Notes: generated by a model not told the origin, from the letters alone. Counted from the first letter of the stretch, positions 577-6,926 are shown. The stretch: DNA of 18,561 nucleotides from an uncultured archaeon (GCA_964595665.1 CAZQQS010000003.1:33145-51705), one strand, 5' to 3'. Program-made: numbers and translations.

Positions 577-1257
577 ATGAATCAGAAGGGAGATTTTTTT
601 ATATATATTATTTTTTCAATAGTAATTTTATTAATTGCAGCAATAATATTTTATGTTTATCAAGGTAACGATGGTTTTAATGTTTTTAATAAAGATTTAG
701 ATGTTAATTTTTCAAATTCATTAGATAATACTTTAAATAATAGTAAATTGCCTCAAACAACTGTGCAAAAGCTAGATACTTATAAGAATTCTTATGCCTT
801 TAAAGCCGAAATAACAATTAATAATAGTTACGAATTAAAGGACAATAATATTTCAATAGAGGGAAAACCAACATTAAAAATTTCAGATAGGGATTTTGTA
901 TTAAAAAACCCATATTTAAGCCATTTTAAAGGGTCTATTGGAAATACTTTAGAAGGGTATGTTAATACAATTTATATTGATGATAGTGAAATAATTATTA
1001 AAAGTAAAATTTATTCTGATTTTAATGATATAGAGAAAATAACTATTGAAGATTTAAAAATAAATTTTGAAAATACAAACATTAATGGAAAACTATATTA
1101 TGAAAACAAAGCTTATGATTTGAATAAAGCATATTTAAATTTTAAAGGTTTTGAAGGGGATGCGATCATAAACCCTAAAAAAAATACAATTACTTTTGAT
1201 GGTAAAATTGGGTATTTAAAATTTAAAGTAGATGGTTTAACTACAACTTTAGAGTGA
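577..1257 (+). CDS. Hypothetical N-terminally membrane-anchored extracellular protein
   Basis: 226-aa ORF with GGTG 7-10 nt upstream of the ATG. It has a single N-terminal TM (FFIYIIFSIVILLIAAIIFYVY) followed by an Asn/Lys-rich beta-type region. It is first in a three-gene cluster with 4-nt spacers. Confidence 0.65.
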   Translation: MNQKGDFFIYIIFSIVILLIAAIIFYVYQGNDGFNVFNKDLDVNFSNSLDNTLNNSKLPQTTVQKLDTYKNSYAFKAEITINNSYELKDNNISIEGKPTLKISDRDFVLKNPYLSHFKGSIGNTLEGYVNTIYIDDSEIIIKSKIYSDFNDIEKITIEDLKINFENTNINGKLYYENKAYDLNKAYLNFKGFEGDAIINPKKNTITFDGKIGYLKFKVDGLTTTLE

Positions 1258-1261
1258 TATT

Positions 1262-2200
1262 ATGGAAAAATTTGATTATATAACAGTAATAAAATCAGCA
1301 ATAATAACTATAATTTTAGTATTTGTTTTGATATTTGCATTAACTTATACGCATATAGTTCCTTGTAAATCTATTGGTAAAAGTTGGTGTGATGTTTATT
1401 ATGGGATTGTTGGAGCACCAAAAATATTAGTTGTTTTTGGAAGCGATGGCTTAGGAAATGTTGAAAAATTAGAAGCTATATTAAATGATAAAGCATTATT
1501 CCAAATACACCCTCAATTAAAACATGTAGATACCATATTAACTTTGTCATATTTAAAAAATTATGATATGGTTATAGTTACCCAAGCAAAAACTTTAAGT
1601 AATAAACAAATTCAAATATTTTACGATTATGTAAATTCTACAAATGGAGTTTTAATTTGGACTGGAGATTCTGGAACTAATTTAGCACCAAATGAAAAAA
1701 AAGCATCTGAGTTTAAAGATTTAAATTTGCCAAATCATCCTTGGGTAAGAGTTGTTGAAGATAATAAAATTTTAGATTTTAGAATTATATTATCTGCAGA
1801 ATATATTAATAATTATTGTACTATAGTTAATTGTAATAATGATTTGAAAGGGTATGTTGGAGATTTTATTCAAACTGAAGAAGGATCTTTTGCAGCAGGA
1901 ATTAAACCAGGAACTAATTTTTCAGGAGATTTTGCAGTTGTAACTTACATTTACAACACATCTTCAAAAATTGATTTATCTGTAGATGCACAAACTAATT
2001 TACAAAATACAGATAATACTAAAATAAATAAAATTATTCCATTAATAATTAGGGGCCAAATAGGTCGAAAAGTAGTATATAGTGCTATGCCTTTAGAATA
2101 TTATATTGATGTGCCTGGATTTGAACAATCTAATACGGGAATGAACTTGCCTTTAACAACTAGATATTTATTTGAAGAATATTTAGGTTATATAAAGTGA
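1262..2200 (+). CDS. Hypothetical N-terminally anchored protein, possible GATase1/ThuA/DUF4350-like flavodoxin-type fold
   Basis: 312-aa ORF starting 4 nt after the upstream stop, with an N-terminal TM. The segment KILVVFGSDG...YDMVIVTQAKTLSNKQIQIFYDYVNSTNGVLIWTGDSG fits the strand-helix pattern of GATase1-like or DUF4350-type domains. The fold assignment is inference only. Confidence 0.7.
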   Translation: MEKFDYITVIKSAIITIILVFVLIFALTYTHIVPCKSIGKSWCDVYYGIVGAPKILVVFGSDGLGNVEKLEAILNDKALFQIHPQLKHVDTILTLSYLKNYDMVIVTQAKTLSNKQIQIFYDYVNSTNGVLIWTGDSGTNLAPNEKKASEFKDLNLPNHPWVRVVEDNKILDFRIILSAEYINNYCTIVNCNNDLKGYVGDFIQTEEGSFAAGIKPGTNFSGDFAVVTYIYNTSSKIDLSVDAQTNLQNTDNTKINKIIPLIIRGQIGRKVVYSAMPLEYYIDVPGFEQSNTGMNLPLTTRYLFEEYLGYIK

Positions 2201-2204
2201 TTTC

Positions 2205-3926
2205 ATGGACGATTTTGATTTTAATATAAGTGATGACTTCCAAAATTCTGAAAAGCCCAAAAGTTCTTTAAACTTAAAAAAATATGCTGGTCCAATAATA
2301 AAAATTATAATTTTATTAGGAATATTATTTGTTTTAGTTTGGTTTTTCTTTTTAAGATATGCTGAAGTAAGTATTTATATTACTGCAACAGATACCTCTA
2401 AATCTTTAGATAGTGGAATTATTTATTTAAATGATAAAACATATAATCTAGGGGAAACTTTTAAAATTGTTCCTGGAGATTATGATATTCGTTTAAGCGA
2501 TATAGACTCAAAAAAATATTATTTATTGGATTCAGATTCAGTAATAACTATCAATAAAGATTCAGGAGATATAGATCTGAAAGCTTATCCTTTAGAATTT
2601 AAAAAATTATCTAACTTTGTTTTATCTTTACCTTCAGAAATATATGAAAACCAAAATATAAAAATAACTTTAGAGGTAAATAATACCAATGATTCTCCTT
2701 TAAATGTAATAATAAAAGGAGATAAAGATTTTAATTCTTTATCTGAAGAATTCACATTAAATAAAGGCCCAAATAAAAAAGAATTTTATTTCAAAAATAC
2801 TTTAAAAAAGGGTGCTACTTTTAAAGGCTCAATTTATTTTGATTCTGCAAAAGGTATTTCAAAACTAACAGAATCAGTTAGTTTAAAAGTAAATGCAGCT
2901 CCAATATTAAAATTCAAAAATTTGAAAACCAGTTATAAAGTAAATGCGGGACAAGATTTAGAATTAACTCTGGAAATAGATAATTCCTCAAATATTAATA
3001 TTGAAAATCTAAATTTAGATTTTGAAAATTCATCATCAAATATAGATTTATTAAAAAGTATGGTTGTAGAAAGTACAAAAGATTTGAATATAATTTCAAA
3101 AGATATTGGCACAGCTAAAGTTATTTTTAAAATTCCTATTGATATAACTTTAAAAGAACAATATTTTGATATTATTTATAGAAATTCGTATTCTGAAGCT
3201 AGACAAAAAATTACTTTAGAGATAATTGCTCCAGAAATAATTACTCCAAAATTATTAGATTTTGGTAAAATAACTGCTAGTCAAACTTTAATTACAAAAA
3301 TAATTCCAATAGAAAATAAAACTAATTATTCTATAAAGATAACTGATTTTGATATTGATATTACTACTGCACAACCTAAAAATTCAATATCTGATTTAAA
3401 AGCAATATTTTCTTCAGTAGATTTCTTAGAAGATATTCCTGCTAATGGTTCTACAAGCGGTACAGCAAATGTTATTATCCCCTCAACATTCTTATCTGAT
3501 ATGGTTACTGGAAATATAACTTTAAAAACAGATTATTTTGATATTAAAGTGCCTTTTAAATTAGAAATTCTAGAATTAAAAATCGCTTTAGATTTTGAAA
3601 ATCTAAATGACAAATATACATTTACATATGATCCAGTTACAACTATGGGTATACCTAAAAGCAATTTTATTAATTTAAAAAATACTGGGAATATAGATTT
3701 AAGTATTAAAAATATTTATGTTGACTGTTCAGAATTAGATATTACATTAGGAATTCAAAAACCATTTGATTTAAAAGTTGGAGAAAAACAAGAATTCTTA
3801 TTAAATCAAAAATCAATTCCAAAAAGTAGTTTGCCTTCTGAAAAAGTTTGTAATTTGAATATCACATATATTGATCCAATATCTAAATTTGATAAAGTGT
3901 TTAGTAAATTAGTTATAATTGCTTAA
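2205..3926 (+). CDS. N-terminally anchored surface protein with about four Ig-like/CARDB-like beta-sandwich repeats
   Basis: 573-aa ORF starting 4 nt after the upstream stop, with a TM at about residues 30-50. About four ~100-aa units carry recurring patterns (LDFGKI..., LKNTGNIDLSIKNIYV, ITLEVNNTNDSPLNVII) typical of CARDB/ASH/DUF11-type domains. Confidence 0.8.
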   Translation: MDDFDFNISDDFQNSEKPKSSLNLKKYAGPIIKIIILLGILFVLVWFFFLRYAEVSIYITATDTSKSLDSGIIYLNDKTYNLGETFKIVPGDYDIRLSDIDSKKYYLLDSDSVITINKDSGDIDLKAYPLEFKKLSNFVLSLPSEIYENQNIKITLEVNNTNDSPLNVIIKGDKDFNSLSEEFTLNKGPNKKEFYFKNTLKKGATFKGSIYFDSAKGISKLTESVSLKVNAAPILKFKNLKTSYKVNAGQDLELTLEIDNSSNINIENLNLDFENSSSNIDLLKSMVVESTKDLNIISKDIGTAKVIFKIPIDITLKEQYFDIIYRNSYSEARQKITLEIIAPEIITPKLLDFGKITASQTLITKIIPIENKTNYSIKITDFDIDITTAQPKNSISDLKAIFSSVDFLEDIPANGSTSGTANVIIPSTFLSDMVTGNITLKTDYFDIKVPFKLEILELKIALDFENLNDKYTFTYDPVTTMGIPKSNFINLKNTGNIDLSIKNIYVDCSELDITLGIQKPFDLKVGEKQEFLLNQKSIPKSSLPSEKVCNLNITYIDPISKFDKVFSKLVIIA

Positions 3927-5077
3927 TTAAAAATAATTGTTTTTTCTTTTAATTCATAATCTTTTATTGAAACATTGTCTCTATTTTCAGATATTTTCTT
4001 AATATATTTTATCTCGTCTTCAATTACTTTACTAAAAATTAATTTTCCAGCTATTGGCACATAATCATACAATTTTATTTCATAATTTTTATCTATTGTA
4101 ATTTTAGCAAATCTTTTAGTTTTAGGGATTAAAAACCAAGCATCTGAACTTACTGTATATTCATCTCGCCAAGTATCCAAAATAAAAATATTTTTATTAG
4201 CAATATTTGTTTCTATTTTTTTATGAACATGTCCAAAAAATATTATGTCTTGGGGTATTTTTTTTACACCTTCATATAAATCTTTTATATCTACATCATA
4301 ATGACTTTTAAAAATATTAATAAAAGATTTTTTAATCATACTTAAATATGCTAAAAAATATCCTCTAGCTATGTAAGTATATAATGAAAAAATCATATTA
4401 TAAACAAAATATTTAAATAATAAAACCAACATTTCAGATTTTATAGGTTTATTAAACTTAAATAATATTGTTTTATCATTAATTCTTTCAACAAATGGGT
4501 GCCATTCTTTTGAATCCATAAAAAAAGAACTAAATCCTGAAAATAATGTAGGTATGTTTAATTCAACAGTATTTTTATAAGGTTTAAACACATTTCTTCT
4601 ATCAAATGTAAAATAAGTATCGTGCATATTACCATGTTCAAAATATAATCTCTTTTCAGCATAGCTATAATCAAAGAAAATATTTTTACTTTCAAAAATT
4701 TCTTTCATTCTTTCTTGAACTGCTGGAAATAATAATTCGTAATCATGATTTCCAAAAATAAAATAAATTTTATTTTTATCTTCTTTTAAGAATTTTTTTA
4801 AACAATCAAATACTTTAGAATGTGCTTTGTAAATAGATTCTAATTTTTCTAAAGCATTCATTGGGGTTACATGTTCTAAATAAAATGTCCATTTGTCTCT
4901 TACAATAGGTGTTTTTAAAAAATCGAAAGTATCTCCGTTTAAGATTAGATCTACAGGATTTTTAGTTTTTGAAAATTTTTCAATAGTTTGAATAAAAAGA
5001 TTATCTGCTACAAAATCATCAGTTAATGTTCCTGAGCCCAATTCAGTATCTGAAAAAACTAAAATCTCTTTAACCAT
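3923..5077 (-). CDS. Calcineurin-like metallophosphoesterase, LpxH-like architecture (COG2908-type) with hydrophobic lid insertion
   Basis: MPE motifs appear in order: FSDTELG (DxH with His replaced by Glu), NGDTFDF, GNHD, EHGN, GHVH. A ~130-aa insertion between the last two motifs contains the hydrophobic stretch MLVLLFKYFVYNMIFSLYTYIARGYFLAYLSMI, placed like the LpxH lid. ILDTW after GHVH parallels LpxH VLGAW. Confidence 0.85.
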   Translation of the reverse strand: MVKEILVFSDTELGSGTLTDDFVADNLFIQTIEKFSKTKNPVDLILNGDTFDFLKTPIVRDKWTFYLEHVTPMNALEKLESIYKAHSKVFDCLKKFLKEDKNKIYFIFGNHDYELLFPAVQERMKEIFESKNIFFDYSYAEKRLYFEHGNMHDTYFTFDRRNVFKPYKNTVELNIPTLFSGFSSFFMDSKEWHPFVERINDKTILFKFNKPIKSEMLVLLFKYFVYNMIFSLYTYIARGYFLAYLSMIKKSFINIFKSHYDVDIKDLYEGVKKIPQDIIFFGHVHKKIETNIANKNIFILDTWRDEYTVSSDAWFLIPKTKRFAKITIDKNYEIKLYDYVPIAGKLIFSKVIEDEIKYIKKISENRDNVSIKDYELKEKTIIFN

Positions 5078-5107
5078 AAATAGTATAAATTAATAATATA
5101 TAAAAAA

Positions 5108-5671
5108 CTATAGTTTTGTTTTTTTTGGTTTAGCTCTTGTAAATTTATGAAACTTACCTTTCCAAAAATGCTCATATTGAGATTTTGTATAATAAAAATG
5201 ATCATGTAATTTTGAAAAAAACGAGGAATTCTTAATTTTTTTAATCCCCTTTGAAATAAATCTAAAAAATTTAGATAATTTTTCAAACCTTGCTAAGAAA
5301 ACAACTAATTTTTCAGATTTTAAAATTCCGTGTAAAATCCCTTGCCCTAATGCAATTCTTTCTGTTGCTTGTCCTATCCTTATAACACTTCTACCTACTC
5401 TAAAAATCAAACCAAAAGGCATTACCGCTAAAATATCCAACCAAGAATTCTTAAAAAAATATTTTAAATTAGGAGATAAAAAATAAATAGATATTAAATC
5501 AACTACAAAAACACTTATTATCAAATAATCTAAAATTTTTACAATTAAATGTACTGTCTGATTTTCAATATGTACTGCAAATTCTAAAATTATAACTATT
5601 ATTAATAACACTAAGGCATAAGGCATTATTTTATCAGTAATTCTATTTACCTTCATAAAAAAATTCTTCAT
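5108..5671 (-). CDS. Stand-alone voltage-sensor-like domain protein (Ion_trans S1-S4 only, no pore)
   Basis: 187 aa with four predicted TM helices. S2 is ISVFVVDLISIYF, with F-x-x-D like the Kv charge-transfer centre. S3 is YFFKNSWLDILAVMPFGLIF, like Kv YF..WNIIDLLAILP. S4 is RVGRSVIRIGQATER. No S5-P-S6 or TVGYG-type filter follows, only a basic amphipathic tail. A TATA-like TTTATATG at 5693-5700 is consistent with a leaderless start at 5671. Confidence 0.75.
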   Translation of the reverse strand: MKNFFMKVNRITDKIMPYALVLLIIVIILEFAVHIENQTVHLIVKILDYLIISVFVVDLISIYFLSPNLKYFFKNSWLDILAVMPFGLIFRVGRSVIRIGQATERIALGQGILHGILKSEKLVVFLARFEKLSKFFRFISKGIKKIKNSSFFSKLHDHFYYTKSQYEHFWKGKFHKFTRAKPKKTKL

Positions 5672-5692
5672 ATGCTATAAACAAAGATAAAA

Positions 5693-5700
5693 CATATAAA
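5693..5700 (-). promoter_or_regulatory. TATA-box candidate for the voltage-sensor-like gene (leaderless transcript)
   Basis: The minus strand reads TTTATATG, centred about 26 nt upstream of the ATG at 5671. No SD-like sequence lies in between. Confidence 0.4.
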
Positions 5701-5753
5701 CTTAATATTTTAAAATAGATAAAATAATTAAAAAGAAAGAAAAAATAAAAAAA

Positions 5754-5828
5754 TGGGCGAGGCCGGATTCGAACCGGCGACCTCACGATTATCAGTCGTG
5801 TGCTCCAACCAGGCTAAGCTACACGCCC
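5754..5828 (-). tRNA. tRNA-Ile (anticodon GAU)
   Basis: 75-nt hand-folded cloverleaf. Acceptor is GGGCGUG/CUCGCCC with one U6-U67 mismatch. Anticodon arm is CACGA-CUGAUAA-UCGUG. T arm is GCCGG-UUCGAAU-CCGGC. Discriminator is A and no CCA is encoded. Confidence 0.9.
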
Positions 5829-5849
5829 ACAAATACAATTTATGCATAT

Positions 5850-6441: not shown

Positions 6442-6578
6442 CCCGACTTAGTTTAGTGGCTAAAGCGTCCGGCTGTAGATGTTTCGAGCTTTATAGGTCT
6501 TCAACCATTCCTCCTCGGCAAGGTTGCCTATATGAAGCAGAAACCGGAATATCCCCGGTTCAAATCCGGGAGTCGGGA
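6442..6578 (+). tRNA. tRNA-Tyr (anticodon GUA), intron-containing
   Basis: Exon 1 is 6442-6478 and exon 2 is 6543-6578, giving a 73-nt mature tRNA. Acceptor is CCCGACU/AGUCGGG with C1:G72, the archaeal/eukaryal Tyr identity pair. Anticodon loop is CUGUAGA. T arm is CCCGG-UUCAAAU-CCGGG. Discriminator is A and no CCA is encoded. Confidence 0.85.
6479..6542 (+). other. tRNA-Tyr intron (64 nt) at canonical 37/38 position
   Basis: The central 4-bp helix C32-G6540, U33-A6539, G34-C6538, U35-G6537 is flanked by the 3-nt bulges A36-G37-a6479 and a6541-a6542-A38, which fits a bulge-helix-bulge motif. The outer helix is imperfect. The intron interior contains a GGCA-aggt-UGCC hairpin at 6518-6529. Splice-site boundaries are uncertain by about 2 nt. 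Confidence 0.7.
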
Positions 6579-6623
6579 CTCATTCTTATTTTATTGAAAT
6601 TTCAAAAGAAAAAAAAAGAAAAA

Positions 6624-6926
6624 CTATTGTTCTTCTTCGATATAATACCCTAAGATTGATTTCTTTAGAATTCCATTTACTTTTACAATAGCATTCTCTG
6701 CTGGTAAGCTGTTTGAACTTATGAATATACTATCAGTATCGTCTTTTAAAGTGTAACCTGATAACTCGCCTAATTTTATGCTATTTAATACTGTTCCAGA
6801 AACAGTTACATTTTTGTTAATATAACTATCAAATTTGATTTCTTCAATATTTTTAGTTGTTATACACCCACTTAAAAGTACGAATAATCCTAAAACTAAA
6901 ATAATTATTGCTAAAATATATTTCAT
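6624..6926 (-). CDS. Small secreted lipobox-type protein with OB-fold-like domain
   Basis: I use the ATG at 6926 (MKYILAIIILVLGLFVLLSGC), giving a signal peptide that ends in the lipobox-like L-S-G-C. The mature part, NVTVSGTVLNSIKLGELSGYTLKDDTDSIFISSNSLPAENAIVKVNGIL, follows the pattern of YgiW/BOF-type OB folds (inference). Confidence 0.65.
   Translation of the reverse strand: MKYILAIIILVLGLFVLLSGCITTKNIEEIKFDSYINKNVTVSGTVLNSIKLGELSGYTLKDDTDSIFISSNSLPAENAIVKVNGILKKSILGYYIEEEQ

Follow-up and report, generated by a model that had tools for sequence, protein, structure and literature searches.

The stretch of DNA analysed here, 18,561 nucleotides from an uncultured archaeon (GCA_964595665.1, CAZQQS010000003.1:33145-51705; hereafter the window), has a G+C content of about 24% and carries, side by side on its minus strand, the two genes with which this work is concerned. 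The first (5108..5671) codes for a stand-alone protein of 187 amino acids (aa) with the S1-S4 layout of a voltage-sensor domain (VSD), and belongs to an unnamed DPANN-wide family. The second (3923..5077) codes for a 384-aa calcineurin-type metallophosphoesterase (MPE), identified by a match to Pfam Metallophos and by conserved motif columns, and belongs to a DPANN-wide family as well. The initial annotation, which took the pair for a possible two-gene voltage-sensing phosphoesterase, was right about the layout, two open reading frames (ORFs) on the same strand and 30 bp apart. Both ORFs are real genes, and both are under purifying selection: relative to the orthologues at a related locus (L002; dS 0.6-0.8), the ratio of nonsynonymous to synonymous substitution rates (dN/dS) is 0.16 for the VSD gene and 0.09 for the MPE gene.

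The 30-bp spacer between them (5078..5107, minus strand) begins with a T6 run right after the VSD stop codon, followed by TTTATATA, the previously reported TATA-like box, about 23 nt ahead of the MPE ATG. The VSD gene has a TATA-like box of its own, TTTATAT, about 25 nt ahead of its ATG. The spacer possibly combines a terminator with an archaeal promoter belonging to the MPE gene, and the presence of a separate TATA-like box for each gene, with a T-run between them, suggests that the two transcripts are separate and possibly leaderless. A promoter and terminator scan gave chance-level results with its bacterial models, which are not applicable to archaea.

The 187-aa protein matches Pfam Ion_trans (PF00520) with E=6.9e-5, and the match pairs residues 20-148 with profile positions 12-131 of 241, that is, with the S1-S4 half only. 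A word-indexed search recovered only four close relatives. A profile built from these five sequences and run as a full HMMER scan over 1.84 billion cluster representatives retrieved 337 clusters (at 50% identity) at E<=1e-3, with 130 clusters at E<=1e-10, and nearly all members are 150-250 aa long. Residue statistics were taken from an alignment of 138 members; 89 of these match Ion_trans individually (best E=1.1e-8), and no other Pfam family recurs among them. When the family profile was compared with all PDB sequences, nine matches at E<1 were obtained, of which eight are voltage-gated channels and one is a designed protein; the channels include the bacterial Nav channel 4bgn (E=5.6e-4), KvAP (five entries) and NaChBac, aligned over S1-S3.

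A scan of one genome per GTDB species placed relatives of the 187-aa protein at 280 loci, and the neighbourhoods of the best 80 of these were surveyed. Their labels read DPANN, unclassified archaeon, or "uncultured Methanosarcinales" (the last from third-party-annotated bins, the label being taken as given), and as far as seen in these 80 of 280 loci the family is confined to DPANN archaea. Source annotations call the proteins "hypothetical protein", and NCBIfam holds no model for the family. An ORF of the same length, 187 aa, at locus L008 was considered as a relative and proved unrelated. In four loci, stand-alone VSD genes stand in tandem on the same strand (L025:4498-5633, L031:4992-6084, L050:1512-2604 and L055:4516-5528).

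We hold with high confidence that the 187-aa protein is a pore-less member of the VSD family. The Ion_trans match is limited to S1-S4, the whole family is short and has no pore or S6, and the PDB matches of the family profile are VSDs apart from the one designed protein; the pore-less S1-S4 architecture and the VSD similarity first proposed for the protein are thus both borne out. That the Pfam match of the 187-aa protein stops at profile position 131 of 241 would also be compatible with a truncated remnant of a six-transmembrane (6TM) channel gene. We give this explanation a negligible probability: the family spans 337 clusters with a common short length and a conserved C-terminus, the gene has a dN/dS of 0.16, no pore-encoding sequence follows it, and the protein ends about 39 residues past S4. 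Relatives at the locus have either the same gene (L001-L003) or none (L004-L006), with no full-length channel in any of the six, which by the test named at the outset speaks against a truncated remnant.

The features of the VSD are most clearly seen in its first three segments, all encoded, like the rest of the gene, on the minus strand. S1 (5573..5626, residues ~16-33) has Kyte-Doolittle values of 2.0-2.3, corresponds to a helix (2-32) predicted by AlphaFold2 (AF2), and carries at its outer end E30, a position that is acidic in 92% of the 138 members. S2 (5477..5551, residues ~41-65) contains an outer acidic residue, D48 (97%), and the charge-transfer centre F55-x-x-D58, with F55 at 98% and position 58 acidic in 100%; the segment is in register with S2 of KvAP and of the bacterial Nav channel 4bgn. 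S3a and S3b together (5372..5443, residues ~77-100) contain W77-L-D79, P85-F86, R91, R94 and R98, with position 79 acidic in 100% and W77 and P85 conserved in 99-100%. The S2 F-x-x-D and S3 W-L-D motifs pointed out in the initial annotation are therefore highly non-random, at 98-100% in 138 members, and D48, F55, D58 and D79 occur together in 131/138. The charge-transfer residue set of the 187-aa protein consists of the countercharges E30, D48, D58 and D79 and the hydrophobic gasket F55. The spacing E30-D48-F55-D58-D79 is 18, 7, 3 and 21 residues, as compared to 17, 7, 3 and 21 for E32-N49-F56-E59-E80 of NavAb. E32, N49, E59 and E80 are named VSD residues of NavAb (PMC13095418).

S4 had been placed on the arginines R91, R94, R98 and R105, and this placement is not correct. 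Among them R91 alone is conserved (87%); 62% of members have an acidic residue at position 94, and positions 98 and 105 are basic in 17%; all four arginines are found together in 5/138 members only, namely the window's own clade. The stretch is moreover continuous with S3, with no turn, and aligns to S3b, "PFNLIFWGIEGLALIKAL", of the fused VSDs described below, which were themselves aligned to KvAP. We place S4, together with a basic helix that follows it, at 5228..5311 (residues 121-148) because the Pfam match stops at residue 148, because the family profile sets the segment on S4 of KvAP (a sub-alignment that is itself insignificant), because hhalign pairs it with the Arg ladder in the fused VSDs, and because AF2 with a deep alignment gives a helix at 121-148. 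The segment has seven basic positions, R128, K131, K134, R137, K141, K144 and K147, which are K/R in 81, 65, 91, 91, 91, 96 and 56% of members, respectively, and 117/138 members keep at least five of the seven charges. Basic residues occupy every third position at R128, K131, K134 and R137, and the series goes on at K141, K144 and K147.

Between S3 and S4 lies a family-specific connecting segment (5312..5371, residues 101-120), which is the region of lowest pLDDT (predicted local distance difference test) in the AF2 model. This S3b-S4 segment is 25-40 residues long in the stand-alone family, acidic in the family consensus, and deleted in the fused VSDs; it carries Q110 and H114, which occur together in 127/138 members, and is predicted to face outward. 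The gene ends with a C-terminal amphipathic helix and basic tail (5111..5227; AF2 helix 150-178) that has no pore helix, selectivity filter or S6 and carries F151-F152, part of an FF(E)KP-like motif whose family consensus is FFEKP. Basic character is found at the N-terminus, in the S2-S3 loop and in the C-terminal tail, and not in the S1-S2 loop or the S3-S4 segment; this charge distribution fits the canonical orientation, and the protein is predicted to have four transmembrane (TM) helices with both termini in the cytoplasm.

An AF2 model calculated with the 138-sequence alignment reached a pLDDT of 81.5 and a predicted TM-score (pTM) of 0.60, with helices at 2-32, 38-65, 69-75, 77-83, 86-109, 121-148 and 150-178. 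An earlier model, made with five close homologues, had a pLDDT of 46, the alignment being too shallow. A Foldseek search of the model against the PDB returned nothing significant; the top matches were NavAb and CavAb at E~3, with TM-scores of 0.30-0.38.

The second gene encodes a protein that matches Pfam Metallophos (PF00149) with 33 bits and has 207 homologues of 365-432 aa, mostly from DPANN; the sources label these Woesearchaeota or Nanoarchaeota, in keeping with the DPANN-like host that had been assumed for the window. Its motifs are D10-x-E12, G48-D49, G109-N-H-D112, H148 and H283-x-H285, and in an alignment of 60 MPEs the invariant residues are D10, E12, G14, G16, T19-D20-D21-F22, N47-G48-D49, G109-N-H-D112, H148-G149, H283, H285 and W303-R304. 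The extended motif I (residues 10-25) is an invariant D-x-E-x-G-x-G-x-x-T-D-D-F-x-x-D, in which Glu replaces the metal-binding His of other metallophosphoesterases. The D-x-E variant had been noticed in the window's protein from the start, and its invariance in 60 homologues makes it a fixed family trait rather than a sign of local degeneration; the Glu suggests an altered metal site or altered chemistry.

The further description of the MPE as LpxH-like comes down to one weak match. The sole PDB sequence matched is Haemophilus LpxH 5k8k (E=1e-3), over 64 residues of the GHxH...WR region only, and a search of NCBIfam gave no LpxH match, the only trace being yfcE (E=0.009); the label "LpxH" attached to homologues at JGI is an automatic name. 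An insert of about 135 aa between H148 and H283 does stand at the place of the LpxH lid. Its proposed hydrophobic nature is not a trait of the MPE family, since residues 216-248 are aromatic or hydrophobic in the closest ~20 homologues only and polar in the wider family; in the window's subclade the Kyte-Doolittle 19-mer maxima of the insert are ~1.0-2.0. The MPE may be a peripheral enzyme at the membrane surface, and we regard it as an uncharacterised new subfamily of a known superfamily, distantly LpxH-like. Across 80 loci its neighbours are housekeeping genes, and the candidates considered as substrate clues (a TP_methylase-family, Dph5-like protein, an Elp3-like protein, ProRS and a 186-aa acidic protein) were uninformative. 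The last of these, a soluble protein without a Pfam match, is encoded directly downstream of the MPE in 20/84 clustered MPE-centred loci, immediately adjacent in 13 of the 20 (for example L092:5223-5780), and is absent from the window.

Do the two genes form a system? Upstream of the VSD ORF, beyond an 81-bp interval at 5672-5752, lies a tRNA-Ile(GAU) gene (5753..5829, minus strand). Between this tRNA and the MPE gene, the window and L001-L003 carry the VSD gene, and L004-L006 have a 76-bp gap. The MPE orthologues at 86% identity retain the VSD gene, at an unchanged distance of 30 bp, and those at 57% (L004-L006), 51% (L007), and 45% and 43% (L008) have no VSD gene upstream. Synteny downstream of the MPE is kept in L004 and L007, with genes for proteins of ~575, 315 and 224 aa and then Sec61-beta. 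In L004 (assembly CAZMGA01) the tRNA-Ile lies directly upstream of the MPE gene, the 76-bp gap (L004:5925-6000) holding no VSD gene, and the VSD-family gene of this assembly is found on another contig (L020). Reciprocal surveys gave the same picture: no MPE was found within 5 kb in any of the 80 VSD-centred GTDB loci, no VSD-family ORF in any of 80 further MPE-centred metagenome loci (21-42% identity, with 700 bp or more of upstream sequence in 56), and no VSD-MPE fusion among 120 MPE homologues or 153 VSD-family proteins.

The conserved adjacency expected of a two-gene voltage-sensing phosphoesterase is thus missing from both surveys (0/80 and 0/80), and a specific link between VSD and MPE is in our view very unlikely. 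Their adjacency is most easily explained if a single gene was gained or lost, in one lineage, in the interval from tRNA-Ile to the MPE. When the tRNA-VSD, tRNA-MPE and VSD-MPE spacers were aligned to distinguish insertion from deletion, they turned out too AT-rich to tell. Insertion of a mobile element at the tRNA was considered and rejected, as the extra DNA is one gene and neither an integrase nor repeats were seen.

The original proposal would have the VSD dock the MPE through the basic helix after S4 and so make lipid head-group hydrolysis voltage-dependent. The shared strand, the 30-bp gap and the retention of the arrangement in the close relatives L001-L003 speak for it, as does the spacer, 28 of whose 30 bases are the same in L001 and L002 though dS is 0.6-0.8. 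The region after S4 is also polybasic and amphipathic, as is the linker that follows S4 in Ci-VSP, and the large insert of the MPE corresponds in position to the lid of LpxH. We nevertheless find such a split system very improbable. Adjacency is limited to one clade at >=84% identity and the pairing is absent at 57%, 51%, 45% and 43% MPE identity; besides the empty reciprocal surveys and the lack of fusions, the two genes sit on different contigs of one assembly (CAZMGA01), each gene has its own TATA-like box with a T-run between, and the MPE insert is not hydrophobic across the family. The present evidence gives no ground to pursue a split voltage-sensing phosphoesterase.

A different association emerged from the neighbourhoods of the VSD family. 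In 3/80 loci the stand-alone VSD gene adjoins a gene for a fusion protein of ~775 aa (L024:1853-4168(+), L034:2428-4776(-) and L044:840-3170(-)), the first ~150 residues of which match the VSD profile (E=1e-16 to 1e-23) and are followed by an AA_permease domain, giving an APC-type amino-acid/polyamine permease. An N-terminal VSD is present in all of the 120 best APC-permease clusters (P0282-P0401; 59-68% identity, full coverage), with a median E of 2.5e-24, so that the VSD-APC fusion, which is widespread and well conserved, is represented by at least 120 clusters. Pfam detects a methyltransferase-like tail in two of the three locus copies, and most of the fusion proteins have such a tail. In databases these fusions go only by the names "APC family permease" or "amino acid permease".

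The fused VSDs have a long, Arg-rich S4, and their profile matches 39 distinct PDB sequences, including KvAP (E=7.4e-5, over S1-S4), HCN1, HCN3, HCN4, Kv4, Kv2.1, Kv1.2-2.1 and hERG. Comparison by hhalign of the stand-alone family with the fused VSDs gave 99.85% probability (E=1.2e-30). Other domain combinations were seen as well: two proteins of 305-307 aa (P0242 and P0247) are HPP-VSD fusions, with an N-terminal multi-TM domain carrying an HPP motif and then the VSD. Separately, in P0269 and P0273 (276-295 aa) additional N-terminal TM helices precede a VSD whose S4 is a canonical K/RxxRxxRxxR, and P0220 (351 aa) has a C-terminal extension with one further TM helix and a Cys-containing domain.

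Genes for channels also occur next to the stand-alone VSD. A 6TM Kv gene with a TVGYGD filter lies directly downstream on the same strand in four loci (L011:4980-6419, L024, L034 and L051:4872-6516), and a K+ channel gene is found in the flank of L059, L069, L088 and, more weakly, L068. The order [VSD-APC fusion][VSD-only][Kv] is seen in L024:1853-5931 and L034:2428-6614, and [fusion][VSD-only] in L044. The stand-alone proteins at these Kv and fusion loci have 29-67% mutual identity and are therefore not one recent clade. An hhalign comparison of the VSD family with four neighbouring Kv channels was weak (E=0.031), with the correct S2-S3 register. The idea that the stand-alone genes are recent partial duplicates of adjacent Kv genes was rejected, the VSDs of the adjacent Kv channels not being close relatives, and other recurrent neighbours considered as partners (CCA-adding enzyme, zinc-ribbon protein, DUF5652, VTT/DedA and Carb_kinase) were judged to reflect synteny.

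We tentatively favour a mechanism in which the 187-aa protein would act as a voltage sensor in trans. S4, with four to seven basic residues between R128 and K147, would shift as the membrane potential changes, and a membrane transport protein encoded by another gene would receive this movement both by intramembrane contacts and by way of the basic helix that follows S4. The VSD found fused to an APC-type permease in the same archaea would then have a detachable counterpart in the stand-alone protein. The MPE is very likely an independent, widely conserved DPANN enzyme, encoded next to the VSD gene owing to a rearrangement specific to the lineage. We lean towards a trans-acting sensor because the same module is covalently joined to transporters in the same organisms, because stand-alone genes sometimes cluster with the fusion gene and with Kv genes, and because the stand-alone form has its own Q110/H114 segment, which could replace the covalent link.

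Alternatively, the VSD may itself conduct, as a self-contained voltage-gated pathway for ions or protons of the Hv1 or omega-pore kind. The outward-facing Q110/H114 could be a regulatory metal site, such as Hv1 and TMEM266 possess. Conservation within the family is strong, its gene is often the one VSD gene of the neighbourhood, and the paralogues encoded in tandem at L025, L031, L050 and L055 might assemble into hetero-oligomers. Conducting stand-alone VSDs are, moreover, known in eukaryotes (PMC10377628; PMC6359393). This alternative appears unlikely to us, as there is no mid-S1 aspartate (the only acidic residue of S1 being E30, at the outer end), no Trp in S4, and an unbroken ladder of 4-7 basic residues with no obvious permeation gap. 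If true, it would represent a minimal voltage-gated conductance for small cells.

Several observations weigh against the trans-acting sensor and the VSD assignment behind it. The Ion_trans score of the 187-aa protein is 22.6 bits, under the gathering cut-off of 25 bits, and both voltage sensing and a partner for the VSD are things that we infer from sequence. The S4 ladder contains a +4 step, from 137 to 141, and prolines at 138 and 143 in ~45% of members, so that K141, K144 and K147 may lie in an interfacial helix beyond S4; the register of S4 is itself uncertain, as alignments of a periodic Arg repeat can slip by three residues. No transport gene lies nearby in 72/80 of the VSD-only loci, whose commonest neighbours are housekeeping genes such as those for the CCA-adding enzyme and the zinc-ribbon protein, and the window contains neither a Kv channel nor an APC fusion. 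The VSD-MPE spacer is also conserved within the lineage, where the two genes may be co-transcribed.

The same +4 step and frequent prolines, together with an S4 that in the window's protein is mostly lysine and weakly hydrophobic and with the Foldseek top matches at only E~3, would also fit a VSD-derived protein that no longer senses voltage and has become a structural scaffold in the membrane or a subunit for ligand or metal sensing. We find this improbable, since the charge-transfer residue classes (acidic positions in S1-S3, the Phe of the gasket and the central part of the basic ladder) are conserved at 91-100%, a conservation that is hard to explain without a charge-transfer function. Taken as a whole, the explanation that combines VSD identity, no link to the MPE and a trans-acting mechanism has our moderate confidence.

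The remaining genes of the window are ordinary archaeal ones, among them genes for a DEAD-box helicase, MscL, a ZIP transporter, GT2 glycosyltransferases and a cytidine deaminase. Converging on the MPE gene from the plus strand are three consecutive genes (577-3926(+); 226, 312 and 573 aa, with weak Ig-like/DUF1573 matches) that have counterparts at L001:7152-10511, L004:7159-10532 and L007:4677-8195, with a Sec61-beta gene just beyond them in the relatives. This run stays syntenic with the MPE down to 51% identity, and is thus better kept than the VSD-MPE adjacency. At 6442-6578 on the plus strand, Rfam finds a third tRNA, 137 nt long and matched over all 71 positions of the model; this is probably an archaeal tRNA with an intron, overlooked by ARAGORN, and it accounts for a spurious 65-aa ORF at 6456-6653.

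According to current reviews, known prokaryotic VSDs are all attached to a K+, Na+ or Ca2+ pore, and pore-less sensors such as Hv1 arose in eukaryotes only (PMC10377628, PMC13095418); a 2024 review lists Hv channels as absent from bacteria and archaea (PMC13095418). In the full-text literature, which mostly excludes subscription-only papers so that an earlier mention is possible, we found no paper on prokaryotic pore-less VSDs, and with the same coverage VSD terms combined with Woesearchaeota or Nanoarchaeota had no match. The stand-alone family appears as a new branch of a known domain, in an architecture (stand-alone in prokaryotes) that is also new. If archaea have a widespread and strongly conserved family of sensors with no pore, and a conserved sensor-permease fusion besides, the picture in which the pore is always attached would change. 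Structural and biophysical studies would gain small prokaryotic VSDs, 150-190 aa in length, and questions about how the voltage sensor arose and how modular it is could be put directly to the test. Such a family would also suggest that transport is under membrane-potential control in episymbiotic archaea with very small genomes. In the stand-alone VSD we may have a surviving representative of the free-standing module that has long been assumed to predate the joining of sensor and pore. The broadest form of this idea, a DPANN toolkit of detachable voltage sensors, made up of stand-alone, APC- or HPP-fused and Kv-adjacent forms, in which the stand-alone form is a functional sensor that gates partners in trans or conducts, making it the first pore-less prokaryotic VSD family, strikes us as possible yet doubtful.

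Among known systems, LpxH (UDP-2,3-diacylglucosamine pyrophosphohydrolase, COG2908) resembles the MPE in motif order, in the large insert between motifs IV and V at the place of the lipid-binding lid, and in the GH-x-H...W-R region that aligns with 5k8k (E=1e-3). Unlike LpxH, the MPE has D-x-E and not D-x-H in motif I, carries the extra G-x-G-x-x-T-D-D-F motif, is 384 aa long as compared to ~240 aa, and has housekeeping neighbours; archaea, furthermore, make no lipid A. Ci-VSP and TPTE likewise place a VSD beside a phosphoesterase-type enzyme, with a polybasic segment after S4. Theirs is a fused, PTEN-like Cys-phosphatase (CX5R), whereas the MPE is a separate enzyme with the His/Asp motifs of a binuclear metal site; because it is a binuclear-metal enzyme and not of the PTEN type, the analogy is loose.

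In SLC9C1, the sperm Na+/H+ exchanger, a VSD controls a secondary transporter, which is matched by the DPANN VSD-APC fusions. The VSD of SLC9C1 follows the transporter and is accompanied by a CNBD, whereas in the DPANN fusions it is N-terminal to an APC permease with a methyltransferase-like tail, and the window's protein is unfused. Hv1/HVCN1 and TMEM266 share with the window's protein the S1-S4 unit as a separate protein with no pore domain. These are eukaryotic proteins, and the window's family is archaeal; unlike Hv1, it has no mid-S1 Asp selectivity filter and no R-x-W-R-x-x-R in S4 (there is no W in 121-148). The S4 Trp is absent from prokaryotic S1-S4 segments (PMC10377628).

The VSDs of prokaryotic 6TM channels (KvAP, NavAb and NaChBac) differ from the family in that the latter has no S5, pore or S6, an S3b-S4 insert of ~25-40 residues with Q110 and H114, and a ladder with a +4 step and often prolines, the similarity being seen at the profile level only. 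They nevertheless have a homologous S1-S4, with outer acidic residues in S1 and S2, a charge-transfer centre made of the S2 Phe-x-x-acidic motif and the S3 acidic residue in the spacing of NavAb, and an S4 that bears a basic ladder and is followed by an amphipathic helix.

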